64,000 bases of DNA from Escherichia coli (GTDB lineage Bacteria > Pseudomonadota > Gammaproteobacteria > Enterobacterales > Enterobacteriaceae): NCBI RefSeq assembly GCF_030384885.1, contig NZ_CP128613.1. The stretch is one strand, 5' to 3'. The translations under genes were made by a program, and so were the position numbers. Of this stretch, positions 5,565 to 64,000 are shown piece after piece. Numbering within the stretch: position 1 is the first letter of the stretch; each line of letters opens with the position of its first letter. Below the pieces are notes generated by a model that did not search any database, was not told the DNA's origin, and worked only from the letters and a program-made list of their open reading frames with translations.

Positions 5565-5574
5565 CGGCTGCTCC

Positions 5575-6890: not shown

Positions 6891-6959
6891 AGGTTAAAAA
6901 CTTTCCTGTTTTCAACGGGGCTCTCCCGCTGAATATTCGCGCGTTAATTAAAATCAGGA

Positions 6960-8021: not shown

Positions 8022-8029
8022 TGGAGATT

Positions 8030-8050
8030 GCCGGATGCGGCGCATCCGGC
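8030..8050. terminator. GC-rich hairpin between convergent phoE and crl
   Basis: GCCGGATGCGGCGCATCCGGC perfect inverted repeat followed by a T-run. Confidence 0.6.
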
Positions 8051-8059
8051 ACTTTTCAC

Positions 8060-8518
<459 letters not shown>

Positions 8519-34249: not shown

Positions 34250-34952
34250 CCTGCGACTCCGGCGTTAGCGTCTCTTGCAGTGCGGTCATGCATTGTTCAA
34301 GGCGATGCTCGCAGCCGATATCCAGTTCTGATTTATCGGTAATCACCCGGCATTCCCCCGGCGGCAAATCCGGCGAAGGCGTCAGCCCCCATTCGTTGAC
34401 CTTTACCGGCACCGCATCGCGCAGGCGGTTAAACTCTTCCGTGCTCAGCATCACTTGCAGGGTTTCCGGCATCGCCGGGAAGGCCGCCAGCGCCTCTTCC
34501 ACCAGCGCCAGTAACTGCGTCGGTTGCAGCGCCAGTTCGCAGCGAATCACCTGGCGGGTGACTTTCTCCACCAGTTGCAGCAAATCTTCCCGCTGTTTAC
34601 GTTCGATATGGGCGAGGAAGTCGTTCACTTTACCGCTGATGGCCTCCAGCGGCTGCGCCGCTTCAATAAACTGCTTGCGCCCTTCCTGCTGCCCGGCGAG
34701 GCTGCCTTCGGTGTAGCCCTGACGTTGCCCCTCGGCAAAACCTTGCTGATGACCTTCGCTAAAGCCCTGCTCCTGCCCCTCGGTCATGCCCTGAGCAAAC
34801 CCTTTTTGCAGCCCTTCCTGAAAACCGTCCATCAACTGGCGCTGGTAATCGGCGGCGCTAATGCTGGCAGTGAGCGGTTCTCCGGTCACCGCACGCTGGC
34901 GCGGCGGGAAACGGTGCAGGCGATAGCGCCCGCGCAGTGTTTCAATGGTCAT
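34242..34952 (-). CDS. lfiH: Flagellar export ATPase regulator (FliH homologue), Flag-2
   Basis: 236 aa; between fliG and fliI homologues; overlaps fliI start. Confidence 0.75.
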   Translation of the reverse strand: MTIETLRGRYRLHRFPPRQRAVTGEPLTASISAADYQRQLMDGFQEGLQKGFAQGMTEGQEQGFSEGHQQGFAEGQRQGYTEGSLAGQQEGRKQFIEAAQPLEAISGKVNDFLAHIERKQREDLLQLVEKVTRQVIRCELALQPTQLLALVEEALAAFPAMPETLQVMLSTEEFNRLRDAVPVKVNEWGLTPSPDLPPGECRVITDKSELDIGCEHRLEQCMTALQETLTPESQGE

Positions 34953-34955
34953 GGG

Positions 34956-35999
34956 TTACTCCGCCGTCTGTTCCGCAAAGAGCTGTTGCTGAATTTCGCC
35001 CGCCTCTTCCAGTTCACGGGCGATACCCATGATTTCGCGGCGGATTTGTTCGATACGGCTAACCGGCACCGGACCCAGGCGCGCGGTGATCGCTTCCAGT
35101 TGCTGCACCTGACGTTTTGGCATCACCGCATAAATGGAGCGACGTAACAGGGCTTCGGTGCCTTTCAGCGCCACCGCCCAGTCTTCCATTGGCACTTCGT
35201 CGAGCAGGCGACGGCGTACCTCTTCGTTCTGGCGGCTGAGAATAAAGAAGTCGTACATCTCATCCTGCAACTGCTCCAGCACGTCTTCGTCGCGCTCGCG
35301 CATCTGGTCGAGGATCACCTGCTGGTTTCCCTGGAAGCGGTTGACAATATCCGCCGCCTGTTTGATGCCCTTCACCTTCGAGCCGTGCTCTGAAAGCACC
35401 GACAGGCCGCGTTCGATCAGACGATCCAGTTCATCCACCACGTCGCGGTTGACGTCGTTGAGTTTCGCTACCCGGTAGAGAATTTCGTTTTGCACCGATT
35501 CGTTGAGATAAGAGAGCACCGCCGCCGAGATTTCCGGCGTCAGAAACGCGAGGAATACCGCCTGCAATTGCAGATGTTCTTCGGAGATCAGCATCGCCAG
35601 CTGGCGCGGTTCCACCCATTGCAGGCGCGCCATCCGCGAGCGAATCTCATCGCCGTAGATGCCATTGATCACGCTGCTGGCGATCTCGGTGCCCAGCGCC
35701 TTGTTAAGAATGCCCTGCAACATGGATCGCGATGCGCCGTTGATCCCGCTCTGTTCGCGGAACTCATCAAAGAAGTTATTGATCACTTTGCGTGCCATGC
35801 TGGTTTTGACGCCGGAAAGCCGCGCCATGTTTTCGCTCAGGCGCACCACTTCTTCGCGGCTGAGTTTTTGCATCACCGTTGCCGCCGCTTCTTCGCCCAG
35901 ACACAGCAGCAGAATCGCCGCCTGTTCGAGATAGCTGTTGCTCTTATTTATTGTCAATTCGCTCATTGCTGGTAATCCATTGTCTGAGAACTTCGGCAA
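34956..35999 (-). CDS. lfiG: Flagellar motor switch protein (FliG homologue), Flag-2
   Basis: 347 aa; C-terminal torque helix region; synteny. Confidence 0.85.
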   Translation of the reverse strand: MPKFSDNGLPAMSELTINKSNSYLEQAAILLLCLGEEAAATVMQKLSREEVVRLSENMARLSGVKTSMARKVINNFFDEFREQSGINGASRSMLQGILNKALGTEIASSVINGIYGDEIRSRMARLQWVEPRQLAMLISEEHLQLQAVFLAFLTPEISAAVLSYLNESVQNEILYRVAKLNDVNRDVVDELDRLIERGLSVLSEHGSKVKGIKQAADIVNRFQGNQQVILDQMRERDEDVLEQLQDEMYDFFILSRQNEEVRRRLLDEVPMEDWAVALKGTEALLRRSIYAVMPKRQVQQLEAITARLGPVPVSRIEQIRREIMGIARELEEAGEIQQQLFAEQTAE

Positions 36000-37590
36000 C
36001 GCGATCGGTGTCGCTCATGGCCAGTTTTTGCAGGAACTCGAGTTTCACTTCGAGGCCAGAACTCTGGGACGGCAGGCTGTCATCGCCAGGCAGCGACGGC
36101 AGGTCGACATTTTTACGCTCCTCTTCCGGCACGGCGATCCACGGTTCGCTGATGGCTTCCGGTTCTGGTGTGATAACCGGCGCACGTACCGCCGTCAGCC
36201 GTTTCATCAGCGGGCGCACCACAAAGAACAGCAGCAACAGCGCCAGCAGGCCGCAGCCAATCAGCCGCCCCCACGCCAGTACACTGTCATCTTTCCACAG
36301 TGGAATAACCGGTTCGACAGGCACCGCCTGCGGCACAAAGTTGAGCAGTGATAAGGTGAGATTGTCACCACGCTGGGCGTCGATTCCGGCGGCATTATTC
36401 AGCAACGCGGTCAGTTGCGTGGTTTGCTCCGGCTTCCAGTTTTTCAGCGCCGGGGCGTTTTGATTGAGCACCACCGCCACGTTGAGGCGTTTCACCGCAA
36501 AGCCGGGATGCTGAATATGCTGGACGCTGCGGTCGTAAGAGTAGTCGCGCTTACTTTCGCTGTGTTTGGAAAGCGCTTCCGGCGAGCGGTTTTCTTCCGC
36601 ACCGTTGGTCATCTGATTCGCTGCAATCGGCGGACGGTTACTGAGCGAACCGGGCACGCCCATCGCCACCTGATTAGTGTCGCTGTCCAGCACGCTCTCT
36701 TCGCGGTTGATTTTCGGCGCGTCACCGTAGTGTTCCTGAGTTTCGTCGATGGTGCTGAGGTCGAGATCCGGCATCACACTGACGCGGTAATTCCCCATGC
36801 CAACCAGCGAATCCAGCACGTTCGCCACGCTGGCACGGGTTTTGTCCTGAATATCTTTGAGGATCTGATCGCGTTTACGGGTCGCGGCAGAAACCGCCTC
36901 GCCCGCGCCAATGCCGTCGGTCAGCAGATTTCCCGCCTGATCGACGACGCTGACTTTGCTGGCCTGTAGCCCCGGAATACTGCCGGACACCAGATGCACA
37001 ATGGCGTTCACCTGGTCCATATTCAGCTTCGCGCCGTAATGCAAGCGCACCACCACCGAGGCACTGTTTTGCGGCTCATCGCTGACCACAAACGAGCTTT
37101 CTTCGTTGAGCGCCAGATGCACCCGCGCGCTTTCCACCGCGTCCAGCGACATGATGCTCTGCGCCAGCTCCCCTTCGAGGCTGCGTTTATAGCGCACGTT
37201 CTGCACGAACTGACTGCTGCCGAGCATTTCGTCTTTGTCCATCAGCTCGTAGCCGCTGGGCAATATCGCCTGCACGCCTTTCGCGGCAAGGGTCATGCGC
37301 GTTTTCGACAGTTCGTCTTCCGGCACCAGTATCTGCCCGCTTTGCGGGTCGATGCGGTAGGTGAGCTTTTCGCCGTCCAGCACGGTGACAATCTGCGACA
37401 CGGGCAGATTTTCCTGGCGTCCGTAGAGCGAGACGTAGCCGCGATTCCCCGTCCATAGCACGCTGACGATAATCGCCGTCGCCGCAACGGCAAGCCCCAC
37501 ACCCGCCATCAACGCCCAGCGTTTGTTATCTGCGAGCCGCAGTCGAAACGCCGGAAAGGCCTGGGTTAACTTCTTTATTTGTGCATTCAT
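35944..37590 (-). CDS. lfiF: Flagellar MS-ring protein (FliF homologue), Flag-2
   Basis: 548 aa with N- and C-terminal TM segments. Confidence 0.9.
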   Translation of the reverse strand: MNAQIKKLTQAFPAFRLRLADNKRWALMAGVGLAVAATAIIVSVLWTGNRGYVSLYGRQENLPVSQIVTVLDGEKLTYRIDPQSGQILVPEDELSKTRMTLAAKGVQAILPSGYELMDKDEMLGSSQFVQNVRYKRSLEGELAQSIMSLDAVESARVHLALNEESSFVVSDEPQNSASVVVRLHYGAKLNMDQVNAIVHLVSGSIPGLQASKVSVVDQAGNLLTDGIGAGEAVSAATRKRDQILKDIQDKTRASVANVLDSLVGMGNYRVSVMPDLDLSTIDETQEHYGDAPKINREESVLDSDTNQVAMGVPGSLSNRPPIAANQMTNGAEENRSPEALSKHSESKRDYSYDRSVQHIQHPGFAVKRLNVAVVLNQNAPALKNWKPEQTTQLTALLNNAAGIDAQRGDNLTLSLLNFVPQAVPVEPVIPLWKDDSVLAWGRLIGCGLLALLLLFFVVRPLMKRLTAVRAPVITPEPEAISEPWIAVPEEERKNVDLPSLPGDDSLPSQSSGLEVKLEFLQKLAMSDTDRVAEVLRQWITSNERIDNK

Positions 37591-37594
37591 AGGG

Positions 37595-37936
37595 TTAGAT
37601 CGACATACTCATCAGATCGTTAAATCCGGTGGCGATTTTGTTGCGCACCTGCACCAGCGCGGAGAAAGAGAGCGACGCCTGCTGGCTGGCGATCATCGCC
37701 CCGGCGAGGTCATCACTTTTGCCCGTGTCGACAGCCGTTTGCTGCTGCTCCGCCACCTGCTGGAACTGGTCAACGTGACCGAGCGCGCCGAACATAATAC
37801 GGTTAAACGACACGTCCGGGTCGGTGGAACTGAAGGTCATGGCGGGTAGCACTGGCGCCTGGGCGTTGGCCTGCATCCGCTGCACGTCCTGCATAATTTG
37901 CGCCTGCATGGTGCTGTTGATTGTGGTAATGCTCAT
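37595..37936 (-). CDS. lfiE: Flagellar hook-basal body protein (FliE homologue), Flag-2
   Basis: ORF 37595..38158; likely start MSITTINSTMQAQIMQDVQRMQ (about 113 aa). Confidence 0.8.
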   Translation of the reverse strand: MSITTINSTMQAQIMQDVQRMQANAQAPVLPAMTFSSTDPDVSFNRIMFGALGHVDQFQQVAEQQQTAVDTGKSDDLAGAMIASQQASLSFSALVQVRNKIATGFNDLMSMSI

Positions 37937-37950
37937 TTTTAACTTCCGGG

Positions 37951-38937
37951 TCAGGAGAAAACTTCGATACCGTGCTTGCGCATGGAGGCCAGTCGATAGC
38001 GCAGGGCACGTGGGGTAATGCCTAACAGGTCGGCGATTTTGCTGCGGTTGCCCTGATATTTGCGCATCAGGTCGGCGATATATTGATACTGCGCGCTTCG
38101 TCCGTGCTGGCCTAAATCGCCGGTTTCGGCAATGTGGACGGCGGGCTGAACAGGCCATTGCAGTTCACTGTGGTCAGCAATATCGGTGTCCGGCAGGCCT
38201 AATGCATCCGGGTAAATTACGCCGTCGCGATTTAAAATCATTCCCCGCTGAATGGCGTTTTCCAGTTGGCGCACGTTACCGGGCCAGCGGTAATTAAGCA
38301 GCGCACGGCGGGTGGATTCGGACAGGGTGATATTTTTCACCAGCACCGTGGAGTATTTTTTAATAAATGACTCTGCCAGCGGAATAATATCGTTCAGGCG
38401 TTCACGCAGTGGCGGCATGGTAATAGGGATAACCGCCAGACGATAATAGAGATCTTCACGAAAACGTCCGGCGGCAACTTCCTGCTCCAGGTTTTTATTG
38501 GTGCAGGCAATCAGGCGAAAATTGAGTTTGATTTGTCGGTTACTGCCTAATCGCTCAACCTGTTGTTCCTGCAATACGCGTAATATTTTGGCCTGTAGCG
38601 CCAGCGGCATTTCACCAATTTCATCGAGTAATAAGGTGCCGTTATTTGCCAGTTCCATTTTTCCTGGCACGCTGGCAATTGCGCCGGTAAATGCACCTTT
38701 GTCGTAGCCAAATAACGTCGATTCCAGCATATTTTCCGGGATCGCCGCGCAGTTCACGCCGATATAGGGCGCATTATCATTTTCACCAAAGGCTACGGTG
38801 TGAATATACTTCGCCACGCACTCTTTCCCCGCGCCGGTTTCGCCCTGAATCAGGACCGGCACGTTAAAGGCGGCGACACGCTTTGCCAGAGTAAAAGCGT
38901 TAATGCTGGAGGCGGCAGATGCAATAAGTTCAGACAT
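37951..38937 (-). CDS. lafK: Sigma-54-dependent transcriptional activator, AAA+ and HTH only, no receiver domain (LafK-like)
   Basis: 328 aa: Walker A GETGAGKE, GAFTGA sigma-54 contact motif, C-terminal Fis-type HTH; ORF begins directly at the AAA+ domain. Confidence 0.85.
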   Translation of the reverse strand: MSELIASAASSINAFTLAKRVAAFNVPVLIQGETGAGKECVAKYIHTVAFGENDNAPYIGVNCAAIPENMLESTLFGYDKGAFTGAIASVPGKMELANNGTLLLDEIGEMPLALQAKILRVLQEQQVERLGSNRQIKLNFRLIACTNKNLEQEVAAGRFREDLYYRLAVIPITMPPLRERLNDIIPLAESFIKKYSTVLVKNITLSESTRRALLNYRWPGNVRQLENAIQRGMILNRDGVIYPDALGLPDTDIADHSELQWPVQPAVHIAETGDLGQHGRSAQYQYIADLMRKYQGNRSKIADLLGITPRALRYRLASMRKHGIEVFS

Positions 38938-39060
38938 AGGGTGAACAATATAAGTAGCGACAATAATCAGGATGTTCTGAAGCGTATCACCGGCGGGATT
39001 AACAAGTTTGAATTAAACGATAATAAAAATATTATTTGTTTACAAACAACGAGTTATCCA

Positions 39061-49809: not shown

Positions 49810-52254
49810 ATGATGATTTTGAGTATTCTCGCTACGGTTGTCCTGCTCGGCGCGTTGTTCTATCACCGCGTGAGCTTATTTATCAGCAGTCTGATTTTGC
49901 TCGCCTGGACAGCCGCCCTCGGCGTCGCTGGTCTGTGGTCGGCGTGGGTACTGGTGCCTCTGGCCATTATCCTCGTGCCATTTAACTTTGCGCCTATGCG
50001 TAAGTCGATGATTTCCGCGCCGGTATTTCGTGGATTCCGTAAGGTGATGCCACCGATGTCACGCACTGAAAAAGAAGCGATTGATGCAGGCACTACCTGG
50101 TGGGAAGGCGACTTGTTCCAGGGTAAGCCGGACTGGAAAAAGCTGCATAACTATCCGCAGCCGCGCCTGACCGCAGAAGAGCAAGCGTTTCTCGACGGCC
50201 CGGTAGAAGAAGCCTGCCGGATGGCGAATGATTTCCAGATTACTCATGAGCTGGCTGATTTGCCGCCGGAGCTGTGGGCGTACCTTAAAGAGCATCGCTT
50301 CTTCGCGATGATCATCAAAAAAGAGTACGGCGGGCTGGAGTTCTCGGCTTATGCCCAATCTCGTGTGCTGCAAAAACTCTCCGGCGTGAGCGGGATCCTG
50401 GCGATTACCGTCGGCGTGCCGAACTCATTAGGCCCGGGCGAGCTGCTGCAACATTACGGCACTGACGAGCAGAAAAATCACTATCTGCCGCGTCTGGCGC
50501 GTGGTCAGGAGCTCCCTTGCTTTGCACTGACCAGCCCGGAAGCGGGTTCCGATGCGGGCGCGATTCCGGATACCGGGATTGTCTGCATGGGCGAGTGGCA
50601 GGGCCAGCAGGTGCTGGGGATGCGACTGACCTGGAACAAACGCTACATTACGCTCGCGCCAATTGCTACCGTGCTTGGGCTGGCGTTTAAACTCTCCGAC
50701 CCGGAAAAACTGCTGGGTGGTGCAGAAGATTTAGGCATTACTTGTGCGCTGATCCCGACCACCACGCCAGGCGTGGAAATTGGTCGTCGCCACTTTCCGC
50801 TGAACGTACCGTTCCAGAACGGACCGACGCGCGGCAAAGATGTCTTCGTACCGATCGACTACATTATCGGCGGACCAAAAATGGCCGGGCAAGGCTGGCG
50901 GATGCTGGTGGAGTGTCTCTCCGTGGGCCGCGGCATCACCCTACCTTCCAACTCAACCGGCGGCGTGAAATCGGTAGCGCTGGCAACGGGCGCGTATGCG
51001 CACATTCGCCGTCAGTTCAAAATCTCTATCGGTAAGATGGAAGGGATTGAAGAGCCGCTGGCGCGTATTGCCGGGAACGCTTATGTAATGGATGCTGCGG
51101 CATCGCTGATTACCTACGGCATTATGCTCGGTGAAAAACCTGCCGTGCTGTCGGCTATCGTTAAGTATCACTGTACCCACCGCGGGCAGCAGTCGATTAT
51201 TGATGCGATGGATATCACCGGGGGCAAAGGCATTATGCTCGGGCAAAGCAACTTCCTGGCCCGTGCTTACCAGGGCGCACCGATTGCCATCACCGTTGAA
51301 GGGGCCAACATTCTGACCCGCAGCATGATGATCTTCGGTCAGGGAGCGATTCGTTGCCATCCGTACGTGCTGGAAGAGATGGAAGCGGCGAAGAACAATG
51401 ACGTTAACGCGTTCGATAAACTGCTATTCAAACATATCGGCCACGTCGGCAGTAACAAAGTTCGCAGCTTCTGGCTGGGCCTGACGCGCGGTTTAACCAG
51501 CAGCACACCAACCGGCGATGCCACTAAACGTTATTATCAGCACCTGAACCGCCTGAGTGCCAACCTCGCCCTGCTTTCTGATGTTTCGATGGCGGTGCTG
51601 GGCGGCAGCCTGAAACGTCGCGAACGCATCTCGGCACGTCTGGGGGATATTTTAAGTCAGCTTTACCTCGCCTCTGCCGTTCTGAAGCGTTATGACGACG
51701 AAGGCCGTAATGAAGCCGACCTGCCGCTGGTGCATTGGGGCGTACAGGATGCGCTGTATCAGGCTGAACAGGCAATGGACGATTTACTGCAAAACTTCCC
51801 GAACCGCGTGGTTGCCGGGCTGCTGAATGTGGTGATCTTCCCGACCGGACGCCATTATCTGGCACCGTCTGACAAACTGGATCATAAAGTGGCGAAGATT
51901 TTACAAGTGCCTAACGCCACCCGTTCACGTATTGGTCGCGGTCAGTACCTGACGCCGAGCGAGCATAACCCGGTTGGTTTACTGGAAGAGGCGCTGGTGG
52001 ATGTGATTGCCGCCGATCCGATTCATCAGCGGATCTGTAAAGAGCTGGGTAAAAACCTGCCATTTACCCGTCTGGATGAACTGGCGCACAACGCGCTGGC
52101 AAAGGGGCTGATTGATAAAGATGAAGCCGCTATTCTGGTGAAAGCTGAAGAGAGTCGTCTGCGCAGTATTAACGTTGATGACTTTGAGCCGGAAGAGCTG
52201 GCGACGAAGCCGGTAAAGTTGCCGGAGAAAGTGCGGAAAGTTGAAGCCGCATAA
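49810..52254 (+). CDS. fadE: Acyl-CoA dehydrogenase FadE
   Basis: ORF 49732..52254; likely start [17 protein letters not shown] (814 aa). Confidence 0.9.
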
Positions 52255-52261
52255 TTGAATA

Positions 52262-52281
52262 ACGGAGCCGAAAGGCTCCGT
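52262..52281. terminator. Hairpin between convergent fadE and ivy
   Basis: ACGGAGCCGAAAGGCTCCGT followed by TTTCATT. Confidence 0.6.
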
Positions 52282-52296
52282 TTCATTATCCGCTAA

Positions 52297-52770
52297 TTAT
52301 TTAAAATTAAAGCCATCCGGATGATTTTCCAGGCTGCCGGTCAACGCCGCGAATAGCACCGTTTTACCATCAATCGAAAGCGCATCATTCACATTCAACC
52401 AGGTGAGTTTCTCTTGCGACGTTTTCTCATCAATGGTCGAGAACAGCCCCGTCATCTGATTAGATTTCTCGGACCACATCACAGCGATACGTTGCGAGCC
52501 ACAGTCATGCGGTTTGCACGCGCTCATCACCTGATACGTCTCATCTCCCAACGTTACGGTTTGTGCAGGGGTATAAGTCCCGCCTTTCATCACCCAGGCA
52601 GGCAGCTTATGCCCTTGCACCATCTGATTAAACGCAGCTTTGGTGGTTTCGCCCTTTGCAAGGCTGCTAATGGTTAAATCATCCTGCGCCATTGCACTGG
52701 TGGCGATGACCAGAGCGGCGACTGTTGTTATTGCCTTAAACATCATTCCTCCCGAGCTTATCCTGCCCAT
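52297..52770 (-). CDS. ivy: Inhibitor of vertebrate lysozyme (Ivy)
   Basis: 157 aa, signal peptide, CKPHDCG loop motif. Confidence 0.9.
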   Translation of the reverse strand: MGRISSGGMMFKAITTVAALVIATSAMAQDDLTISSLAKGETTKAAFNQMVQGHKLPAWVMKGGTYTPAQTVTLGDETYQVMSACKPHDCGSQRIAVMWSEKSNQMTGLFSTIDEKTSQEKLTWLNVNDALSIDGKTVLFAALTGSLENHPDGFNFK

Positions 52771-52914
52771 GTTATTAACCTCCTAAAGCCTGGCGATAAC
52801 ACGATAATTTGCAAATCAGATATTTCCAATATCAGCATTTGTTATCAATTTATTCTGCGCTAAGGCAACTGCCTGATAAGGTGTTAAAGTTATAAAACCC
52901 TTCACATAAAGGAG

Positions 52915-53694
52915 TTGTACACCGTGCCTGGCTTGAAGATTACGCTTTTGCAGCAACCACTGGTGTGGATGGATGGTCCTGCCAACCTGCGCCATTTTGA
53001 TCGTCAACTAGAAGGTATTACCGGGCGCGATGTGATCGTTCTACCGGAGATGTTTACCAGCGGCTTTGCCATGGAAGCGGCAGCTTCGTCGCTAGCACAA
53101 GATGACGTAGTGAACTGGATGACAGCTAAAGCGCAGCAGTGCAATGCGCTGATTGCAGGCAGTGTTGCATTACAAACGGAGTCTGGTTCGGTTAACCGCT
53201 TTTTGCTGGTTGAGCCGGGCGGCACGGTACATTTTTATGATAAGCGTCATCTGTTCCGAATGGCAGATGAGCATCTGCATTATAAAGCGGGCAATGCGCG
53301 AGTGATTGTGGAATGGCGCGGCTGGCGTATTTTGCCGCTGGTGTGCTACGACCTGCGTTTTCCGGTGTGGTCGCGCAATCTCAACGATTATGACCTCGCC
53401 ATCTACGTTGCCAACTGGCCTGCACCGCGCTCTCTGCACTGGCAGGCATTGCTGACGGCCCGCGCGATTGAGAATCAGGCGTATGTGGCGGGATGCAATC
53501 GCGTCGGCAGCGATGGCAACGGCTGCCATTATCGCGGTGACAGCCGGGTGATTAATCCACAGGGCGAGATTATTACTACTGCCGACGCGCATCAGGCAAC
53601 GCGCATTGATGCCGAGTTGTCGATGGCGGTGTTAAGGGAATATAGAGAAAAGTTTCCAGCATGGCGGGATGCGGATGAGTTTAGGTTGTGGTGA
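52915..53694 (+). CDS. yafV: Nitrilase-superfamily omega-amidase YafV
   Basis: 259-aa ORF; carbon-nitrogen hydrolase pattern (E...K...C triad context). Confidence 0.85.
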   Translation: MYTVPGLKITLLQQPLVWMDGPANLRHFDRQLEGITGRDVIVLPEMFTSGFAMEAAASSLAQDDVVNWMTAKAQQCNALIAGSVALQTESGSVNRFLLVEPGGTVHFYDKRHLFRMADEHLHYKAGNARVIVEWRGWRILPLVCYDLRFPVWSRNLNDYDLAIYVANWPAPRSLHWQALLTARAIENQAYVAGCNRVGSDGNGCHYRGDSRVINPQGEIITTADAHQATRIDAELSMAVLREYREKFPAWRDADEFRLW

Positions 53695-53699
53695 GTGGG

Positions 53700-54950
53700 G
53701 GTTGTGTTTAGGGCCGGGGAGAGTCGGGGTAAGACTACGAAAGCCCGCTCCCAGCAAGGACTGACGCCAGATAGTTTCTGTCCATGGCTGCTTTTCGCAT
53801 CTTACGTCTTAACCCTGCCTTGAATACCTTATCATTCGTTAAAATATTAATAGCGATGTGCCGTATCCCTGAAAATAATTCTGCGGCGTTTCCTCTTCGT
53901 ATTTTGCAGTCGTCTTCATTCATTACCACGTCCAGACGCCAGTGCAGCTTATTCTCCACGTGCCAGTGATTTCGGATCGCTGTGGCGAACTTTTCTGCGG
54001 TTAAATCAGCAGAACTGATATAATATCTGACCGTCATTTCTGGCTCTTTCTTTTGTTCTGCTATTATTGACCGAAAGGAGAATGCCACGCATAATTTCTT
54101 CAGTCCTTTCCATTCAAACGTGAAATCAATAAGTTCATCACGGACATCGCAAACAATATGAAGACGGATTTCTTCTCTGCCGTGACTCTTTTCACTCATT
54201 GCGTAACTGTCATGCTCTGGATTATTTAATTCTTTCAGCGGAAATTTTTCCTCGAAGGCTTTATTTAGCCGCCCCTGGTTTCCTTTTACAGCGAATAAAT
54301 AATCACCTCCCTGTTTTTGTATCTTCTCTGCAATATCTTTCTGGCAACCCATCGCATCAGTTGTGATGATTTTTCCTTTAATATCCAGAATGTTAAGAAG
54401 TTCTGGGATAGCTGTAATCTCATTGGATTTCTCATCCGTCCTGATCTGTCCGATGACCAGACTGTGCATTGTTGAGAATGCACTAATGACATGAATCGCT
54501 CCCCTGCGGCGACTCTTGTCATAAGAATGCCGGAGTGTTTTTCCATCAATTGCGATGACGTCTTTATCATCTGAAGTATGGCAATCTCGCATCCAGTTAA
54601 TAAAGCACTCGTGAAATTTTGAAGGACTGATACAGGATACAACTCTGGCGATGGTATCGTGAACAGGAATACCATTTTCAAAATCACCATATTGTTTTAA
54701 AAAATCGCGATGTGCTTCCCCAAACTCCTCTATATGTTCCCAGCCTTCTGCACCAGAAATAACGGCACAAATAGTCAACAGTAGAATATCCGACAATTTA
54801 TGTTTCACTTTTGCAGGATTGTCTGTAATCGGGAATAACAGAAATATGTTCCATCAATTTTTTAAGTTCCATTCTTTTCTCCTTAATTATGTAAGGAGTA
54901 TTTGATCATGTATAAGCAATAAAAAAACAGCTTCAGGCAATGAGGAATAT
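53700..54950 (-). mobile_element. ISAs1-family insertion sequence (H-repeat element), approximate boundaries
   Basis: Transposase ORF plus flanking sequence; terminal inverted repeats not mapped. Confidence 0.5.
53735..54808 (-). CDS. ISAs1-family (H-repeat-associated) transposase; N-terminus appears frameshifted
   Basis: 357-aa ORF from a GTG; an upstream ATG-initiated segment ([21 protein letters not shown]) lies in a different frame across an A-run near 54809-54812. Confidence 0.8.
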
Positions 54951-54994
54951 CTCAATTTTTAAACATAAAATGCGAATTGTTTAGTACAAAAAAG

Positions 54995-57000
54995 CAGCGT
55001 TAAGTGAGTAGGCCACCGGAACCTCCCCGACAGCCTCTCGCAGAACCGTACGTGAAACTCTCGCTTCATACGGCTCCCGTCAGGCAAACGCGCTTCCTGG
55101 TCCTGCTTTCCAGTGGGCAAACAACTCCGGCTTCTCTTTTGACAGCCTTTCCATTAGCTGACACGCCTTCGTCTTTCTATACCGCAGGGTTTTATATTTC
55201 TTTCTCGCCCACGCAATCAGCGTCAGATTAATATATCTGCATACTTTCTTCATCGCTGATTTGTGGTATCTCGCGTAATAATTCAGCCACCCCGATATTA
55301 TCGGATTCAGCCACTTCGCAATATCTTCGAGACTCATCTCCACCCTGCGTCTGATCCACAGTTTCCTGAGTTTTCCAATCATGCCTTTCTGCGCACGGTT
55401 ACTCGCCGCCGGGCTGAAACTCGTAAAGAGGTTTCCCCGCCGGTGGTTACGTGCTCTTCGCGCTCTGAACGTATACCCCAGAAAATCAAACTGCACTGTT
55501 TCATGGTTCGCCTGTCGTTCGCTGTCTTTGCAGTAAACTATTTTCGTTTTCTCCGGATGTAATTCCAGTCCACATTCCTGAAAACGTTTTGCCAGCTTAT
55601 TCAGTAATTCCTCTGCCTGTTGTTTACTGCCACAATGAATTAATCCATCATCTGCATAACGGCACCAGGGAATTTCCGGATAATGTAACGTCAGCCATTT
55701 ATCAAACACATAGTGCAGAAATAAATTCGCCAGTACCGGGCTGATGACTCCACCCTGTGGCGTACCTTTATTTCTTTCCTTCAGTGTTCCATCCGGCATC
55801 TGCACCGGCGCTGTCAGCCACCGGCGAATAGACAGTCTTACCCATTTATCCGCACAATGTTTATCCACTGCCCTGAGTAATAAATCGTGGGGGATATTAT
55901 CGAATAACCCTTTAATATCAAACTCAAGACACCAGTCGTATTGCCAGCAACGTTTTCTGGTGACTGCTATTGCATCCAGCGCTGATTTTCCATGCCGGTA
56001 TCCGTATGAATCATTCAGGAAATAACGCTCCACTAATGGTTCAAACGTTACCAGCACCGTCATCTGCGCTATTCGATCGCTTACTGTCGGTATTCCTAAA
56101 AGTCTTTTGCTGCCATCCTTCTTCGGAATTTCCACCGCACGCACTGGCGGCGGCATCCAGCTTCCCGACGATAACCTGTTCCAGATTTTGTACAGATTTC
56201 CTTTCAGATCCCGCTCAAAATCTTTCAGCGTCTGGTTATCCACTCCGGCAGCTCCGGCATTCGCCTTTATCCGCCGGTACGCTTCCACCACATGCAATTT
56301 ACTGACCTGAAACGGTTTTGTCTGTTCACACACAGCCTCCTCCTGCCTACAGTTGGGCTGTGATGCAGACTGCCCGACGCTGTCCCTTCGCTCCACGTTC
56401 ATTACAAACGCTTCCTCACTACTACGAACAGCTCTGCCCCGGTTTCGCACATCGATACTCTCATACTCATAATTTCGGTTATTTGTATTTCTCTCTTGAC
56501 ATTGCGACGACCGGTTCCCGTAGTTCCTGCAAAGAGCCCGATACAGCGTCATGCCTGCTATACACCGGACATCATTCACGCAGCATTCGGAATTCACCCG
56601 TAAATTAATCCCGGCGGTATCACGAAACCTCCGGTTTTGATGTCACTTAGGACTAACGACGTTTCAACACAGGTTCGGGTTTACTCATCTCACTGTATCT
56701 CACATAGGATCAGATCTCGTCTGATCGTTCCCCCTGCGCTCACTACCATGGCTCTTTACCACAGCAGCCGGGGTTGTTTGGGACCGACTTCCGACAGCAG
56801 ATCCCGGTGGGCCTGCCACCATCTCTTCACAAGCTTATGCTTATTACATGCAAAACGTCCCGTTTTGCATCTTTGTGCCTACGGCACACCGTGATCTTTC
56901 CCTAGCATATCGCCCTGACGCGCCGCTGGTTTTACGCTCATGGTATCTCCTTAAATTATTTTGGGCTGTATTCTGGCACCATAGACTCTGATTTATCACC
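54995..57000 (-). mobile_element. Bacterial group II intron (approximate boundaries) with intron-encoded reverse transcriptase/maturase
   Basis: RT ORF plus a domain V hairpin on the minus strand (GAGCCGTATGAAGCGAGAGTTTCACGTACGGTTC, about 55042-55075) immediately 3' of the ORF stop; 5' boundary estimated about 0.6 kb upstream of the ORF start. Confidence 0.7.
55080..56597 (-). CDS. Group II intron reverse transcriptase/maturase (true start probably internal, about 56402)
   Basis: RT fingers/palm motifs incl. YADD (CRYADDGLIHC), then maturase X-domain and C-terminal Zn-finger-like region. Confidence 0.85.
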   Translation of the reverse strand: MNSECCVNDVRCIAGMTLYRALCRNYGNRSSQCQERNTNNRNYEYESIDVRNRGRAVRSSEEAFVMNVERRDSVGQSASQPNCRQEEAVCEQTKPFQVSKLHVVEAYRRIKANAGAAGVDNQTLKDFERDLKGNLYKIWNRLSSGSWMPPPVRAVEIPKKDGSKRLLGIPTVSDRIAQMTVLVTFEPLVERYFLNDSYGYRHGKSALDAIAVTRKRCWQYDWCLEFDIKGLFDNIPHDLLLRAVDKHCADKWVRLSIRRWLTAPVQMPDGTLKERNKGTPQGGVISPVLANLFLHYVFDKWLTLHYPEIPWCRYADDGLIHCGSKQQAEELLNKLAKRFQECGLELHPEKTKIVYCKDSERQANHETVQFDFLGYTFRARRARNHRRGNLFTSFSPAASNRAQKGMIGKLRKLWIRRRVEMSLEDIAKWLNPIISGWLNYYARYHKSAMKKVCRYINLTLIAWARKKYKTLRYRKTKACQLMERLSKEKPELFAHWKAGPGSAFA

Positions 57001-57138
57001 AATACTCAAAACACCATTAATCAGAAAAATCAGCATCTACATATAATTAATTAGAATAATTCAATAAATTATTTTTCTGCCATTATTGACTTGGCTTTTT
57101 ATTGAATGAAATAAAAGAAAAAATCATCACCTAAAAAT

Positions 57139-57777
57139 TTAGTAGACGTTTCTTGTTACTATATGCGCATCATCAACCAAACGCCCGGAACTATCTGTTT
57201 CCTCATGATCAGATACACACATTTCTGGTGCATATCCTGAAAAATCAGAAGTCGCATTCGGATAATTTGTGACATCTAATCTTAATTTAAAACTATATAT
57301 CTCCCAAAATAATTCAGGAGATCTTTCAGGCAAAAAATCATAAATATCAATAAGTATCTTCATCCCCCTTACACGGAACTCCCTCCTGTGTCCATATAAC
57401 GGATGATCTTTACATCCACCAATGATTTGGGACAGAAAAAATCTTGCTCGTGTTTCTGTTACTCCCCAATTAGCAACAGGTTGAAAAATTTCAGAACCAT
57501 CTTTCACACTAAAAAATTTACATTGGTAAAAGCCTGAAAACGTACCATATTCTCCAATATATTTTTCTGATTCATTATAATCCATGCAAACAAAAACATA
57601 TTCAATATCTCCATTTTTTGCCATAACATCATGGATAATAAATGGATTGTTTTGTGATACAGAGAAAATACTATGTACGTTCTGCACTTCAACATTTAAA
57701 GCCCATATATCACTGGGAAAGAAAATCAAACATATCAAATACAACCAAAATTTCATTATTGCGTACCACTCGGACAA
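57139..57777 (-). CDS. Putative immunity protein cognate to the upstream Rhs C-terminal toxin (secreted/periplasmic, about 205-212 aa)
   Basis: Starts at or overlapping the Rhs-fragment stop; hydrophobic N-terminus; AT-rich. Confidence 0.45.
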
Positions 57778-58748
57778 CTCATATCATCAGGTATAGTAAT
57801 TATTACATCTTGAATGCCCATATCCTTCTCTAGCCCTGGTATTTCAAGAATCAACTTTCCGGGATTTTTATCCATTAACTTTTGCTGAGGGTTTATATTA
57901 TTTCTACGCAAAGCCGAATCATCAACGATGTCCCTGACACAACTAAACAGCTGAGTACCATCAGCTTTTAATTTTCCGCTAATAGAATTTATTTTATTTC
58001 TGGCAGATGGTTTATCCCTAAATCCCCATTGAGAAGGGATAATTGCTGTCGAGTCAGTTGTTACTCCGTATTTATCCAAATTTGAAGGACTAGTGTTATA
58101 TCCACCACCTTTCCCAACTAGTCTCGAATTTCCTTGTAATACTCGTGCGCTGCCTATACATTCTTTTAACCCCAAAGGATCTATATACCCCACAGGATCC
58201 AGCGGATACGCATACAGGTTCCAGCCCCCCTTCAGCCCTATCGGATCCTGGGTAATATACCTCCCCTGCAACGGGTCATAGTACCGGTGATGGTTGTAAT
58301 ACAGTCCCGACTCCTCATCATACTGCTGCCCCGGCAGACGGAGTGACTGTTGCAGGTGCAGCGTGCTTTCCTCTCCCAGCAGGTTTCCCCACTCGTCATA
58401 CTCCCCCTGCCACGCCGTTTCCCCTTCCGGGCTGATGAGCGCCTGCGGCAGCCCACGGTGGTCACAGTGGTAAAGATGAAGTTTCCTCTCCGGGATGTAT
58501 TCCGCCTCCATCTGCGCCGCCATCTGTTCCGCCGTCAGCCCGCACTGCGCAAGCCACTGCTGGCTTTCCTCACTCACCGCGCCCGTGCGCAGCTCCCGCT
58601 CCAGCCTTCCCAGCATCACCGCCAGCTCCGCCGGTAGCGTCACCCCCGTGTCCTCCTGCAACATCTCCGCCAGGCTATCCTGCATCGCCGTCTGGCCGGA
58701 AAGCCTGCAACAGCAGCAGGCTACGACACAATGGAATGAAGCACTCAA
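57756..58748 (-). CDS. Orphan Rhs C-terminal fragment: end of Rhs core (DPxGL boundary) plus about 140-aa variable toxin domain
   Basis: 330 aa; ...[45 protein letters not shown] then an unrelated AT-rich C-terminal domain; no full-length rhs upstream. Confidence 0.7.
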
Positions 58749-59105
58749 AACCCGCGCACAGAGTAGCCCACAGTTGCGTGGCTGGTTGCAGACCCGCCAG
58801 GACTTACATGCTTTTGCAGATCTCGTGATGCAGCGCGAGAAAGAGGGATTAACCCTTTCCTATATCAAAAATGTCATCTGGCAGGCGGAGCGGGGGCTGG
58901 GGCAGGAAACGCCTGTGGAATCTCTGCTGACGCAGTACCAGGATGCCCGTGCGCAGAAGCAGAATACAGATGCGCTGGAAAAACAGATTAACGAGCGGAT
59001 GGACGGCGTGTTAAGTCGCTGGCTGCTGCTGAAGAATAATACGATACCGACGATAAAAAAAGACATTGAATTTCAATAACATTCATGAATACAAAGGAGC
59101 TTTAA

Positions 59106-59585
59106 ATGGCGAATTTAATTTATTTAACACTAAATGGTGATAATCAAGGGCTCATTTCAAGTGGTTGTTCATCACAACCATCCATTGGAAATAAAGCTCA
59201 AACAGCACACATTGATCAAATTATGATTTATGAATTCATGCATGGATTAAATCGAGATCAAAACGTCAACCATCATCATTTGACAATAAAAAAACCTATA
59301 GATAAAGCATCACCCTTATTAGGCAAAGCAATTTGCGACAATGAATTATTGACATGTGATTTTTCCTTTTATCGTACAAATAAATTTGGAATTAATGAAC
59401 TGTACTATAAAATCAAATTAACTGGAGCAAAGATAAGCGACATTCATGTCTCTATATCACATATTGTTGTTGATAACAGCGTTCAACCCGAAGAGTCAGT
59501 TTCTTTCAGTTATGAGTCAATTATATGGGAGCATTGTTCCGCTGGCACTAGTGCATACAGTTTATGGGAAGATCGTCTTTTTTAA
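59106..59585 (+). CDS. hcp: Hcp-family protein (type VI secretion tube/carrier), orphan copy
   Basis: 159 aa; MANLIYLTLNGDNQGLISSG... and KPIDKASPLLGKAICDNELLTCDFSFYR...ELYYKIKLTGAKISDI match Hcp beta-sandwich conserved stretches by eye. Confidence 0.65.
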   Translation: MANLIYLTLNGDNQGLISSGCSSQPSIGNKAQTAHIDQIMIYEFMHGLNRDQNVNHHHLTIKKPIDKASPLLGKAICDNELLTCDFSFYRTNKFGINELYYKIKLTGAKISDIHVSISHIVVDNSVQPEESVSFSYESIIWEHCSAGTSAYSLWEDRLF

Positions 59586-59605
59586 AAATATCTGGGATTA
59601 TTATA

Positions 59606-60502
59606 ATGGCTAACAATATTTTACACTCTTCAACATCAGACAGTGAAAACAAAAATACAAGCACTGACAGTACGTTATTTAATGAAAAATTCCCATTTCA
59701 ACTAAGGCAAGATTTCGCATCAAGAATAACAGAAGATGAAAGTGATTTTTTTAAATGGAAAAAAATAAGAGAGTTGGCATTTGTGAGCAATCATAAAGAA
59801 TGGAATAAATATGACTTATTAATTTTAAAATCTGTTAATGAAATCAACATTCATTTGTCCAGCACTCCATACTTTCAGCCGTTGGATTGGTATATAATAA
59901 AAGCCATGCTCTGGACTGAAAACGATGCGGCAAATACTTCTCAGTGGAATGGTTATCCATTACAAATTGGTCGTTTTCGGAAAGATAAAGCGATGCCTGC
60001 TTTAATTTCTGGAGAAAAATCCACAGCCCTTGTTACCCCCCCACAATGGAGAAACAAAGCATTCAATGGGTTAAAAGATCCAGAAAGAAATTACTGGGCA
60101 AAAGAACAAATAACTGGCTCTCCAGAAGAGAATATCAAAGCAGCAATTACTTACTTAATGATGAAACTTTCTAATACAAAGGAAGAGTCAACTATCGTTC
60201 AATATGACTCAACTCTATATAGCACCATTGTCCAAAAAGGCGATTTGGCTGACAACATCAGAAAAGAGAGAAAAACGACCATACCTAACTTAACGAAAAA
60301 CAACCCTGGAAAAAATCTCGATAAAATACACCCGGGAGATATTTTATATTATCAAAAAGCATCCATGAAAGTAATAATTACTGGATGGAAACCTATCACA
60401 ATAAAAAATGTAGCGATGAATTATAATGGTGGTGGAGATCCCAAGTATGCAATAAAACTTCAGTTCGTTTATACATTGCTCACAAAAAACAGAGTGTTAT
60501 AA
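59606..60502 (+). CDS. Putative Hcp-associated effector (about 298 aa, no Cys, C-terminal LysM-like segment)
   Basis: ORF 59564..60502; likely start MANNILHSS; C-terminal YSTIVQKGDLADNIRKERKTTIPNLTKNNPGKNLDKIHPGDILYY resembles LysM spacing; followed by two small secreted proteins. Confidence 0.4.
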   Translation: MANNILHSSTSDSENKNTSTDSTLFNEKFPFQLRQDFASRITEDESDFFKWKKIRELAFVSNHKEWNKYDLLILKSVNEINIHLSSTPYFQPLDWYIIKAMLWTENDAANTSQWNGYPLQIGRFRKDKAMPALISGEKSTALVTPPQWRNKAFNGLKDPERNYWAKEQITGSPEENIKAAITYLMMKLSNTKEESTIVQYDSTLYSTIVQKGDLADNIRKERKTTIPNLTKNNPGKNLDKIHPGDILYYQKASMKVIITGWKPITIKNVAMNYNGGGDPKYAIKLQFVYTLLTKNRVL

Positions 60503-60504
60503 GA

Positions 60505-60954
60505 ATGGGAAAAATAACAATTATTCTACTGCTTACATTCTCATGTACAAAAGGTCTGGCATTTGACATTTCCATGTCTAAAGAATGTAGTGGCGTTGAT
60601 GAACTTGAATTTGTTGATTGTGTTAAAAACTCATTTATTATGAGCACTATTACACTTAAAAAAGCAGAAGTAAATATAAAAGAGAAAATTAAAAAATGGA
60701 ATAACGATGAGGACGAAGCAATAAGAAAAGAAGCAGTTATTTCTTTAAAAAGACTAGAATCTTCTAATCGGGAATTTATACGTTACAGATTTGCTCAATG
60801 CTCTTTTGCTCTAACCTGGGGGGCCAGAGTAGGACGTCTGGCATTCTCTCGACTATATCCATGCTATACTGAGTTAAACAAAATTAGAGCCATGCAACTA
60901 AACAATGCTTTCATTTCAGATTTTCAAAACCCAGATGAGATATCCAGCAAATGA
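60505..60954 (+). CDS. Small secreted Cys-containing helical protein; putative immunity protein 1
   Basis: 149 aa, N-terminal signal/anchor, four Cys; 3 bp after effector stop. Confidence 0.4.
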   Translation: MGKITIILLLTFSCTKGLAFDISMSKECSGVDELEFVDCVKNSFIMSTITLKKAEVNIKEKIKKWNNDEDEAIRKEAVISLKRLESSNREFIRYRFAQCSFALTWGARVGRLAFSRLYPCYTELNKIRAMQLNNAFISDFQNPDEISSK

Positions 60955-61307
60955 TTATTATAAAATTAAGATTAACATTACTATTTATACTGGCCACAAT
61001 TACATATTCAGTACAATCAGACGAATTCGATGATCAAACCACTTACACGAAATACCGTTATTTTTCCACAGCCATACCAGAAGATATACGTAGATTTATG
61101 TTCTACGTAGATTATTGCTTTGTAGATTTAGCATTCGATATCGAAACTGACTCAATGACAGCTAAAAATGATATTATTAATGAATGTACTCCATTAAAAG
61201 AAAGAAACAAAACATTAAAAGAAAAATATAAAAAAGATGAAGAGATAATAGCAATTCTTTCCATTGCAGATGATACCATTTTAATTTATGAAGAATTAAA
61301 AAAATAA
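60951..61307 (+). CDS. Small secreted protein; putative immunity protein 2
   Basis: 118 aa with signal peptide; 4-bp overlap with previous gene; very AT-rich. Confidence 0.35.
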   Translation: MIIIKLRLTLLFILATITYSVQSDEFDDQTTYTKYRYFSTAIPEDIRRFMFYVDYCFVDLAFDIETDSMTAKNDIINECTPLKERNKTLKEKYKKDEEIIAILSIADDTILIYEELKK

Positions 61308-61433
61308 CTCACATGCAATTCACTGGCAATATATATTATAATTTTATAAAAAAAATAATATTTACATTATAGAAATACTCAGCTCCTGTTTGCTGCCCGC
61401 CCTAAACTACAGGCGGCAGCATAACAATAACGA

Positions 61434-62234
61434 TTACTGGAATCGACTCACCAAGTCTTTCACCATCGATACATATGTTTTTTGTTTCAAATTAAACAGT
61501 TGCACTTCCGTAACATGGTCCTTTGATAGTTCTTTATTGCTCGTTTTTGTTATTCCAGCCGGCGGAAAAATTACTCTCGATTCATAATTCACCGGCGACC
61601 AGGTAGCCCACTCACCTGTTGCCACATCCACCAGCGTGAAACGTACCAGGTAGCGCAGGGAGATAGTGTCAGTGAGTTTTTCATTTTTATAGTCGGACCA
61701 TACTGTTGATTTCAGCGCAGAGTCATATTTTCCTGTCTGCAACGTATCATGGTAAACAATAATCGCTTTCTGATGCCCTTTCGCAGCCACAAAACGCAAT
61801 GCCTGCATCCAGTTCATATTTTCAGCACTGGCAACATCCTCGTTCTCATTTTTATCTTTATTTTTGTTACAAGTCAGAGGCTTTTGCCTGTCCGGGATAC
61901 CAGAGAATGTGGAAACAGTATAATATTTTCTCATCTCCTCCTGCATAATGGTTTCCGGTGCGCGACTGCCAGACTGGACAAGTATTACGGGAGAATTGAG
62001 AGGCACACGAAACTCATCTCCTTCAAGCGCAGCCTGAATATCCTCCTCGGATACAGCCAGAGTGGTTTCATTACCGAATAAATCTTTGTCTGTCAGTTGC
62101 GGGGGAATGTTTTTATTAATATTACTTTGTGTAACTTGAGCTTTTTTCTTTTTTTCATCAATAGAAGATTGAGAGGCACATCCTGCAAGCAGCGAGAATA
62201 ATACACATATGCAACAAACTTTTTTTGAATTCAT
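61434..62234 (-). CDS. yafT: Lipoprotein YafT
   Basis: 266 aa with lipobox LLAGC; conserved position next to aspV. Confidence 0.7.
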
Positions 62235-62559
62235 AATCGGACACTCCCTCGCCTGTCATAATGATTAGAATATTTAGCACTGATAACGGACTCTAATTAT
62301 ATACCCCACTTAAATAATAACAAACAAAATCAACATGAAATATACATTCATTTAGTCAATATAAAATTATTCTCTAAAAATATATTTAAGTTGAATGGTT
62401 CGATATCATTATTGAATTTTAATAAATGAGACAACAAGCGAGAGTTACGCACTTACGCCAGAGTAAAATCATTGAACAGAGAAATAGCGGGATTTAAATG
62501 CAAAAAACCGCAAAATTAAAAATCTTGCGGTTCTCTGAACTCATTTTCATGAGTAAATT

Positions 62560-62636
62560 TGGCGGAACGGACGGGACTCGAACCCGCGACCCCCTGCGTG
62601 ACAGGCAGGTATTCTAACCGACTGAACTACCGCTCC
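62560..62636 (-). tRNA. aspV: tRNA-Asp (anticodon GUC)
   Basis: Reverse complement reads GGAGCGGTAGTTCAGTCGGTTAGAATACCTGCCTGTCACGCAGGGGGTCGCGGGTTCGAGTCCCGTCCGTTCCGCCA. Confidence 0.9.
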
Positions 62637-62768
62637 GCGTTGTGTTCCGTTGGGAACGAGGCGAATATTACGGATTGCCTCACCCTTCGTCAACGGTTTT
62701 TCTCATCTTTTGAATCGTTTGCTGCAAAAATCGCCCAAGTCGCTATTTTTAGCGCCTTTTACAGGTAT

Positions 62769-63500
62769 TTATGCCCGCCAGAGGCAGCTTCCGCCCTTTT
62801 TCTGCACCAGATCGAGACGGGCTTCATGTGCCGCAAGCTCTTCATCTGTCGCAAAAACAACGCGTAACTTACTTGCCTGACGCACAATGCGCTGAATTGT
62901 TGTTTCACCTTGTTGCTGTTGTGTCTCTCCTTCCATCGCAAAAGCCATCGACGTTTGACCACCAGTCATCGCCAGATAAACTTCCGCAAGGATCTGGGCA
63001 TCGAGTAATGCCCCGTGCAGCGTTCGTTTACTGTTATCTATTTCATAACGAGCACATAACGCATCAAGGCTGTTGCGCTTGCCAGGAAACATTTTCCTCG
63101 CCACCGCAAGGCTATCTGTGACCTTACAGAAGGTATTGGTCTTCGGAATATCGCGCTTGAGCAACGAAAACTCATAGTCCATAAAGCCGATATCGAACGC
63201 TGCGTTATGGATCACGAGCTCCGCGCCGCGAATATAGTTCATGAACTCATCGGCTACTTCGGCAAATGTGGGCTTATCGAGCAAAAACTCATCGGCAATA
63301 CCATGTACGCCAAAGGCTTCTGGATCCACCAGCCGATCGGGTTTGAGATAAACGTGAAAGTTATTGCCCGTCAGGCGACGGTTCACCACTTCAACGGCAC
63401 CAATCTCAATGATCTTGTGGCCTTCATAGTGCGCACCAATCTGGTTCATACCGGTGGTTTCGGTATCGAGAACGATCTGGCGTGTAATTGCAGTGCTCAT
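62769..63500 (-). CDS. dnaQ: DNA polymerase III epsilon subunit (3'-5' proofreading exonuclease)
   Basis: ORF 62769..63509; start [20 protein letters not shown]; DEDDh motifs. Confidence 0.95.
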
Positions 63501-63564
63501 AGCGGTCATTTATGTCAGACTTGTCATTTTACAGTTCGATTCAATTACAGGAAGTCTACCAGAG

Positions 63565-64000
63565 ATGCTTAAACAGGTAGAAATTTTCACCGATGGTTCG
63601 TGTCTGGGTAATCCTGGACCCGGGGGTTACGGCGCTATTTTACGCTATCGCGGACGCGAGAAAACCTTTAGCGCTGGCTACACCCGCACCACCAACAACC
63701 GTATGGAGTTGATGGCCGCTATTGTCGCGCTGGAGGCGTTAAAAGAACATTGCGAAGTCATTTTGAGTACCGACAGCCAGTATGTCCGCCAGGGGATCAC
63801 CCAGTGGATCCATAACTGGAAAAAACGTGGCTGGAAAACAGCAGACAAAAAACCAGTAAAAAATGTCGATCTCTGGCAACGTCTTGATGCTGCATTGGGG
63901 CAGCATCAAATCAAATGGGAATGGGTTAAAGGCCATGCCGGACACCCGGAAAACGAACGCTGTGATGAACTGGCTCGTGCTGCGGCGATGAATCCCACAC
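63565..64000 (+). CDS. rnhA: Ribonuclease HI, N-terminal about 145 aa; runs off the window end
   Basis: [35 protein letters not shown]...; divergent from dnaQ. Confidence 0.9.

Follow-up and report, generated by a model that had tools for sequence, protein, structure and literature searches.

Does the open reading frame that lies immediately upstream of hcp in this locus encode a protein, or is it what remains of something else? The DNA analysed, here called the window, is a stretch of 64,000 nucleotides from Escherichia coli (assembly GCF_030384885.1, contig NZ_CP128613.1). The frame in question runs on the plus strand for 194 codons, from an ATG at 58495 to a stop at 59077-59079 (194 aa). 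It overlaps by 254 bp the 330-codon Rhs reading frame delimited mechanically on the minus strand (57756-58748), and 26 nt separate its stop (59079) from the hcp start codon, an ATG at 59106. Its coordinates and strand, its overlap with Rhs and its end just before hcp were therefore as the original prediction, made from the sequence alone, had described them. The same prediction had read the 3' part of the frame as genuine protein sequence, and had proposed that it was either the remnant of a gene disrupted by insertion of the tip of an Rhs gene or a small gene linked to hcp. The evidence set out below makes it very probable that the frame is not a gene, but a by-product of the deletion that destroyed the aspV-linked T6SS-2 cluster.

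The features on which the argument turns are the following (position, strand, identity and basis of the assignment).

57139..57756, minus strand: presumed cognate immunity gene, intact, 205 aa; position directly after rhs
57756..58677, minus strand: 3' remnant of rhs; collinear with the RHS element core protein of strain 2013C-4282, Pfam RHS PF03527
58495..59079, plus strand: mosaic reading frame spanning the deletion junction; list of open reading frames, junction anatomy, coding score
58495..58677, plus strand: antisense of the Rhs core region, codons 1-61 of the mosaic frame; GC 67%, collinearity with 2013C-4282 rhs, coding log-odds
58678..58691, plus strand: 14-bp filler derived from tssM, in the same orientation as tssM; exact match to 2013C-4282 tssM, unique in the window
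58692..59079, plus strand: 3' remnant of vasL/tagA; 100% identity to 2013C-4282 vasL, Pfam VasL, BLASTP, full-length translation
59040..59079, plus strand: last 13 codons of vasL, within the variable AT-rich hcp2 cassette; allele divergence, drop in GC
59106..59585, plus strand: hcp2 (Hcp family), intact; Pfam T6SS_HCP E 1.8e-23, annotation of relatives, AAGGAG ribosome-binding site

Composition of the reading frame

The 3' part of the frame is genuine coding sequence, as had been claimed, and searches with the C-terminal segment find VasL homologues. The Pfam profile VasL (PF12486) matches residues 66-179 of the frame with an E value of 8.3e-20, above the gathering cut-off; the match covers positions 30-146 of the 147 in the profile, the first ~29 being missing. 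Aligned by BLASTP with an intact VasL domain-containing protein of 469 aa from E. coli O55:H7, the frame reaches an E value of 2e-87, with near-identity beginning at residue 67 of the frame, which is residue 322 of VasL. The protein-like segment is longer than was first supposed: instead of about 80 codons from 58828, it comprises 128 codons from 58692. Base 58692 is the third position of vasL codon 321, and the reading frame is the native vasL frame, continuing through residues 322-449 of a 449-aa VasL allele to the native stop.

Codon usage bears out this division of the frame. When codons are scored by log-odds, with the window's own long genes as the training set, the vasL part (58693-59039) is positive in the frame under study (+0.34) and negative in all five others, whereas the 5' part (58495-58677) scores -0.17 per codon, against +0.49 for the opposite Rhs frame. 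Exact look-ups found no record of the 194-aa chimeric product, or of its 143-, 97- and 83-aa variants; a 101-aa version starting at TTG 58774 is recorded as CAD6110424.1, a gene-caller product.

The vasL tail has retained its native frame, and upstream of it the frame is by chance open across the filler and 61 antisense Rhs codons, a GC-rich stretch (67%) in which it reaches an ATG and so attains its 194 codons. The Rhs frame on the minus strand, which reaches 58748 only through antisense vasL, likewise runs on for about 24 codons through the tssM filler and antisense vasL to a TTG at 58748. The apparent overlap between the two frames consists of two spurious extensions across the joint, and the remnant still looks like protein, most likely because the deletion is recent.

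The deleted interval and its joint

Both flanks of the joint were compared by megablast with 5,426 complete RefSeq E. coli genomes. Homology to the vasL-hcp region begins abruptly at 58692 in this collection, and the arrangement and junction seen in the window are absent from all 5,426 genomes. The best match on both flanks is E. coli 2013C-4282 (NZ_CP027579.1), whose locus (L003) provides the reference for the breakpoint coordinates given here, and which represents the ancestor as a close relative and not as the direct parent. Window positions 50443-58677 correspond to reference positions 1-8235 with four mismatches and no gaps, and window positions 58692-63579 to reference positions 34114-39001 with one mismatch and no gaps, making 5 SNPs across 13.1 kb of flank. 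Between the two breakpoints 2013C-4282 has 25,878 bp, of which no piece was located elsewhere within the 64-kb window; the net loss is 25,864 bp, extending from inside rhs to vasL codon 321.

The deleted DNA is the core of the T6SS-2 cluster, adjoining aspV/dnaQ. In 2013C-4282 the minus strand of the interval carries the remainder of the 1393-aa rhs (its 5' three-quarters), vgrG and hcp1. The plus strand carries tssB, tssC, tssE, tssF, tssG, tagH, tssJ, tssK, tssL (icmH), tssH, vasI, tssA and tssM, as well as the opening 962 bp of vasL. In relatives vasL follows directly after tssM, of which the window keeps only 14 bp. The ancestral locus would accordingly have had the immunity gene, a full-length rhs, vgrG and hcp1 on the minus strand, and tssB through tssM followed by vasL and hcp2 on the plus strand; illegitimate recombination would have removed the T6SS-2 core and fused the back part of rhs to the tail of vasL.

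What is left of rhs is the C-terminal 307 of its 1393 codons (922 bp), which include the last part of the core together with the toxin tip. This fragment and the gene downstream of it align collinearly, at 99.95% identity, with the 3' end of the full-length rhs at the same site in 2013C-4282. There the downstream gene (57139-57756) is annotated as a hypothetical protein after rhs; it encodes 205 aa in all deletion-bearing contigs, has no Pfam match, and is presumed purely from its position to be the immunity gene.

The view that a gene had been disrupted was thus correct as to the outcome, the 3' part of the frame being a vasL/tagA remnant, and mistaken as to the cause. An incoming C-terminal tip/immunity module that hit the gene upstream of hcp and left only its 3' end would explain why the Rhs fragment starts within the conserved core, right next to foreign sequence, which gives it the superficial appearance of an orphan tip. 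Orphan Rhs tip/immunity modules do share with it a 5'-truncated rhs starting from the conserved core, and then a small gene at the immunity position. Classical Rhs orphans lie downstream of a full-length rhs, and probably arise by displacement on acquisition of a new tip. No full-length rhs adjoins the fragment in the window, and the fragment differs from orphan tips in being the main rhs gene minus its 5' 3.26 kb, collinear with the resident full-length rhs of 2013C-4282 and in the same site and orientation. Furthermore, the two genomes differ by 25.9 kb of missing DNA, not by extra DNA, and the tssM 14-mer at the joint comes from the missing interval and is explained only by its deletion. 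Insertion of an Rhs tip is on these grounds extremely unlikely, and on the deletion reading the "Rhs fragment" is what remains of the main rhs gene after loss of its 5' part, rather than an acquired orphan tip.

Mobile sequences do occur nearby. The segment between yafV and the Rhs immunity gene (53735-56597) contains a frameshifted ISAs1-family transposase and, on the minus strand, the group II intron reverse transcriptase/maturase gene ltrA (55080-56597); since 2013C-4282 has both as well, neither is connected with the deletion. In strains that carry the deletion, short-read contigs break within 53735-56597. Further upstream, positions 30000-52000 match a Flag-2 (second flagellar) cluster (flhA, fliF, fliI, a glycosyltransferase and others) upstream of fadE, and this region is covered to at least 80% in only 1,256 of the 5,426 complete E. 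coli genomes.

Rhs homology stops at 58677 and vasL homology starts at 58692, and the 14 bp between them, TCCTGCATCGCCGT, match exactly positions 30221-30234 of the reference, inside tssM, on the same strand and within the lost interval. The 14-mer has this single matching site in the reference cluster and is unique in the window, and the number of matches expected by chance was 0 in 100 shuffles, with one mismatch allowed. The full exact match to tssM amounts to 19 bp (58676-58694; reference 30219-30237), with microhomologies of TA (2 bp) on the Rhs side and CTG (3 bp) on the vasL side. The scar can therefore be written as rhs / TA / 14 bp of tssM / CTG / vasL, and is equivalent to two losses, of 21,985 bp and 3,879 bp. 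Inspection of the joint showed no IS end, target duplication, long repeat or mobile element.

Two other explanations for details of the joint were considered and rejected. The filler is not divergent Rhs sequence, given that no Rhs copy in the 5,426 E. coli genomes passes 58680 and that the match to tssM is exact. Nor does error-prone repair synthesis account for the SNP at 58664, which lies 13 bp from the joint, because the ancestral C is present in three of the five other carriers of the junction described below.

Tiny microhomologies, together with a collinear and co-oriented filler templated inside the lost interval, suggest template switching or templated synthesis, and the joint points to illegitimate, probably template-switching, recombination. 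A single replication-based event with a double template switch, from rhs to tssM to vasL and co-directional throughout, would produce the scar; an MMEJ-type variant, microhomology-mediated end joining with templated synthesis, would also fit it. The 2- and 3-bp microhomologies and the collinear filler in direct orientation liken the joint to those of FoSTeS/MMBIR-like or alternative end-joining events, with the difference from FoSTeS/MMBIR-like events that the mechanism here is read from the scar.

The same sequence would result if two successive deletions had occurred, but the second of them would have to begin no more than 19 bp from the first joint, and a single complex event is the most likely course, being favoured roughly twofold. 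The final joint contains the k-mer CTCCGCCAGGCTATCCTGCATCGCCGTCTGGCCGGAAAGCCTGC; a joint between rhs and tssM only, as in the hypothetical intermediate, would read GCCAGGCTA/TCCTGCATCGCCGTCTGTGGGAACATG and contain the k-mer GCCAGGCTATCCTGCATCGCCGTCTGTGGGAACATGCC. An intermediate having only the rhs-tssM joint was found neither with a synthetic 200-bp junction query against the complete genomes nor by searching for exact copies of the truncated Rhs products that it too would encode (309 aa, in both SNP variants, and 295 aa); the final allele alone was recovered, although absence of the intermediate from the collections searched is weak evidence. The only two-piece match returned by the intermediate search was a separate, independent rhs-tssM deletion in strain 2018-10-1CC, which is considered further below.

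The joint is not confined to the window. An identical 44-bp junction is present in five assemblies (L004-L008, comprising two NCBI assemblies, two Logan run assemblies and one ENA metagenome assembly) and absent from intact loci; all five carrier contigs, found via the 101-aa product CAD6110424.1, have the same gene order. Position 58664 is C in L004, L007 and L008, and T in the window, L005 and L006, and since both bases occur among the carriers the substitution postdates the deletion, after which the lineage diversified. Divergence among carriers is 0-3 SNPs per 5.7 kb, excluding 20 clustered differences of L008. In L008, the ENA metagenome contig, two tight clusters of differences lie at the equivalents of window positions 58437-58587 (the Rhs core remnant) and 61667-61860 (yafT), which point to gene conversion by other copies of Rhs, to recombination or to a consensus of mixed strains.

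With an identical joint in several isolates, and an intact cluster in the close relative 2013C-4282, the junction is a lineage marker. That it might instead be an artefact of assembly, a mis-join of repeated Rhs sequence with the hcp2 region, is a natural concern, in that Rhs cores exist in multiple copies, at which assemblies often break or are mis-joined, and the junction is in no complete RefSeq E. coli genome. Yet the same 44-bp junction occurs in five assemblies from different samples and pipelines, one of them a metagenome contig with 55x coverage according to its name, and a mis-join would not add a 14-bp segment of tssM. The probability of an artefact is accordingly negligible.

The vasL remnant and the hcp2 cassette

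VasL-domain proteins are the class B TssA-like TagA proteins, such as V. cholerae VCA0121 and EAEC TagA; they are membrane-localised and act on the extended sheath, which they stabilise or limit (Schneider et al. 2019, PMC6745524). In the intact E. coli relative (O55:H7) the ImpA_N domain spans residues 12-113, hydropathy peaks at about 239-262 and the VasL domain occupies 292-434. The remnant in the window derives from an orthologue of these proteins and carries the C-terminal VasL domain, but it differs from them in consisting of the last 128 residues only, without ImpA_N and the membrane segment. ImpA_N (PF06812) is absent from the frame, and the DNA that encodes it is absent from the window; the hydrophobic/transmembrane segment is likewise missing, the remnant starting at residue 322. 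The T6SS structural genes of the cluster (sheath, baseplate, membrane complex and cap) are all deleted in the window, so that the apparatus with which TagA works is gone. A scan of 58300-59300 for sigma-70-like promoters and terminators, a crude consensus test, found none, and inspection by eye of the sequence before ATG 58495, TTG 58774 and ATG 58828 revealed no clear Shine-Dalgarno sequence. Judged from these features of the sequence, the remnant is most likely an inert, untranslated or non-functional pseudogene fragment.

The other possibility originally raised, a functional small gene linked to hcp, could take the form either of an expressed VasL mini-protein, the candidates being 101 aa from TTG 58774 and 83 aa from ATG 58828, or of ~390 bp retained for signals that serve hcp2 and the downstream genes. 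The frame is intact and is called by annotation pipelines, and the vasL tail is invariant across the six sequences compared (the window and the five carriers); this invariance, however, is uninformative on selection because overall divergence is so low. Independent deletions elsewhere keep a similar vasL tail beside hcp, as in a vasI-vasL fusion that breaks 11 bp away, and the 102-aa tail product of the vasI-vasL type occurs in 1,872 index blocks of the collection. On the other hand, the look-up that yielded these 102-aa relatives is biased toward breakpoints in this stretch of vasL, and other lineages truncate vasL at query bases 643, 914, 974 and 1178, so that there is no fixed minimal unit. 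With ImpA_N and the hydrophobic segment gone and the VasL domain lacking its start, with neither a promoter-like site nor a clear Shine-Dalgarno sequence, and with its T6SS deleted, a small hcp-linked gene is not supported, and we consider it very unlikely; an inert vasL fragment remains the preferred reading.

The first intact gene after the scar is hcp2, which belongs to an AT-rich variable cassette made up, from 59040, of hcp2 and its downstream genes. Homology of most E. coli genomes ends at query base 1310, which is window position 59039, and GC content is 28% in 59040-59079 as against 55% upstream, that of the cassette being ~33%. Other strains have an alternative vasL tail (…NNVMPEAATGTTAEK) together with a 160-aa hcp allele. 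As the break in homology falls 13 codons before the vasL stop, the boundary of the cassette lies inside the vasL coding sequence.

The vasL alleles also differ by a 1-bp indel after a poly-A run at window positions 59057-59066 (AAAAAAAGAC). The extra A is present in the window, in 2013C-4282 and in several strains, and gives a 449-aa VasL that ends 26 nt before hcp2; O55:H7/O157:H7, without the extra A, have a 469-aa VasL which is 20 codons longer and overlaps hcp2 by 35 bp. The vasL of 2013C-4282 is a 449-codon open reading frame ending ...KKDIEFQ and a stop, and the "frameshifted" flag placed by PGAP on the 449-aa form is due to the O55/O157 allele, which lacks one base of the poly-A run and so runs longer.

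Downstream of hcp2 (59564-61307) are open reading frames of 312, 149 and 118 aa. The 312-aa frame gave no significant Pfam match, and a PDB sequence search with it gave no meaningful match; PGAP splits it in 2013C-4282, a stop codon interrupts it in O55:H7, and L004 and L008, which share the difference G59758A, have a shorter version. The 149-aa frame (60505-60954) is DUF1311/LprI-like, resembling lysozyme inhibitors (Pfam E 0.006), and both it and the 118-aa frame have hydrophobic, signal-like N-termini. The region 59564-61307 looks like Hcp-linked effector and immunity genes.

Other losses of T6SS-2 in E. coli

Loss of this cluster by internal deletion has already been published. T6SS-2 was lost from ST410-B/H24 through a 21.0-kb deletion between rhsG and tssM, and from a sub-clade through a 19.8-kb deletion between tssD1 and tssA2; the site was free of mobile elements, and its junction served to mark the clone (Cummins et al. 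2023, PMC10711316). The window resembles ST410-B/H24 in that the cluster lies next to aspV/dnaQ, one breakpoint falls in the minus-strand rhs, the core tss genes are lost and hcp2 (tssD2) is kept, and again there is no mobile element at the joint and the junction is a clonal marker. It differs in that rhs is here joined to vasL, with 14 bp of tssM left between them, a templated filler being unreported in ST410. The window's joint is distinct from all the other decays seen.

The deletion in 2018-10-1CC (NZ_AP021894.1; L015, position 6537) is an independent loss of ~21.5 kb between rhs and tssM, with a 2-bp overlap at the joint. Its breaks lie at reference positions 8673/30142, compared with 8235/30219-30237/34114 for the window, so that its breakpoints are 438 bp from the window's Rhs breakpoint and 77 bp from the source of its tssM filler. 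In size this deletion resembles the published ST410-B loss of 21.0 kb. A very common type of T6SS-2 decay in E. coli combines a tssF-tssH fusion reading frame with a vasI-vasL fusion (L009 and L011-L013, at about 5981-8309); the breakpoint of the latter is at reference position 34125, within the GCCGGAAA microhomology, and is the one that lies 11 bp from the window's 34114. In terms of the vasL gene the breaks are at base 963 in the lineage of the window and at base 974 in the vasI-vasL fusion, and further classes of truncated vasL start at gene bases 643, 914 and 1178. In L010 and L014 vasL is broken by frameshifts.

It is tempting to ask whether such clustering of breakpoints in vasL and tssM marks a fragile or template-switch-prone site, or else selection for the vasL tail as a regulatory region or mini-protein serving the hcp2-effector-immunity cassette. 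The searches made here were biased toward finding such neighbouring breakpoints, and we regard either meaning of the clustering as very unlikely.

For annotation, the consequence is that the sequence upstream of hcp2 should be labelled not as a gene but as a vasL/tagA pseudogene fragment at a deletion joint. The 14-bp templated filler offers a clean natural example of a complex microhomology-mediated deletion, and the 44-bp junction can be used as a clonal marker. Another independent lineage of E. coli has here discarded the T6SS-2 apparatus and kept the Rhs tip, the presumed immunity gene that goes with it and the hcp2-linked cassette, a combination of loss and retention in which a specialist would find nothing surprising.
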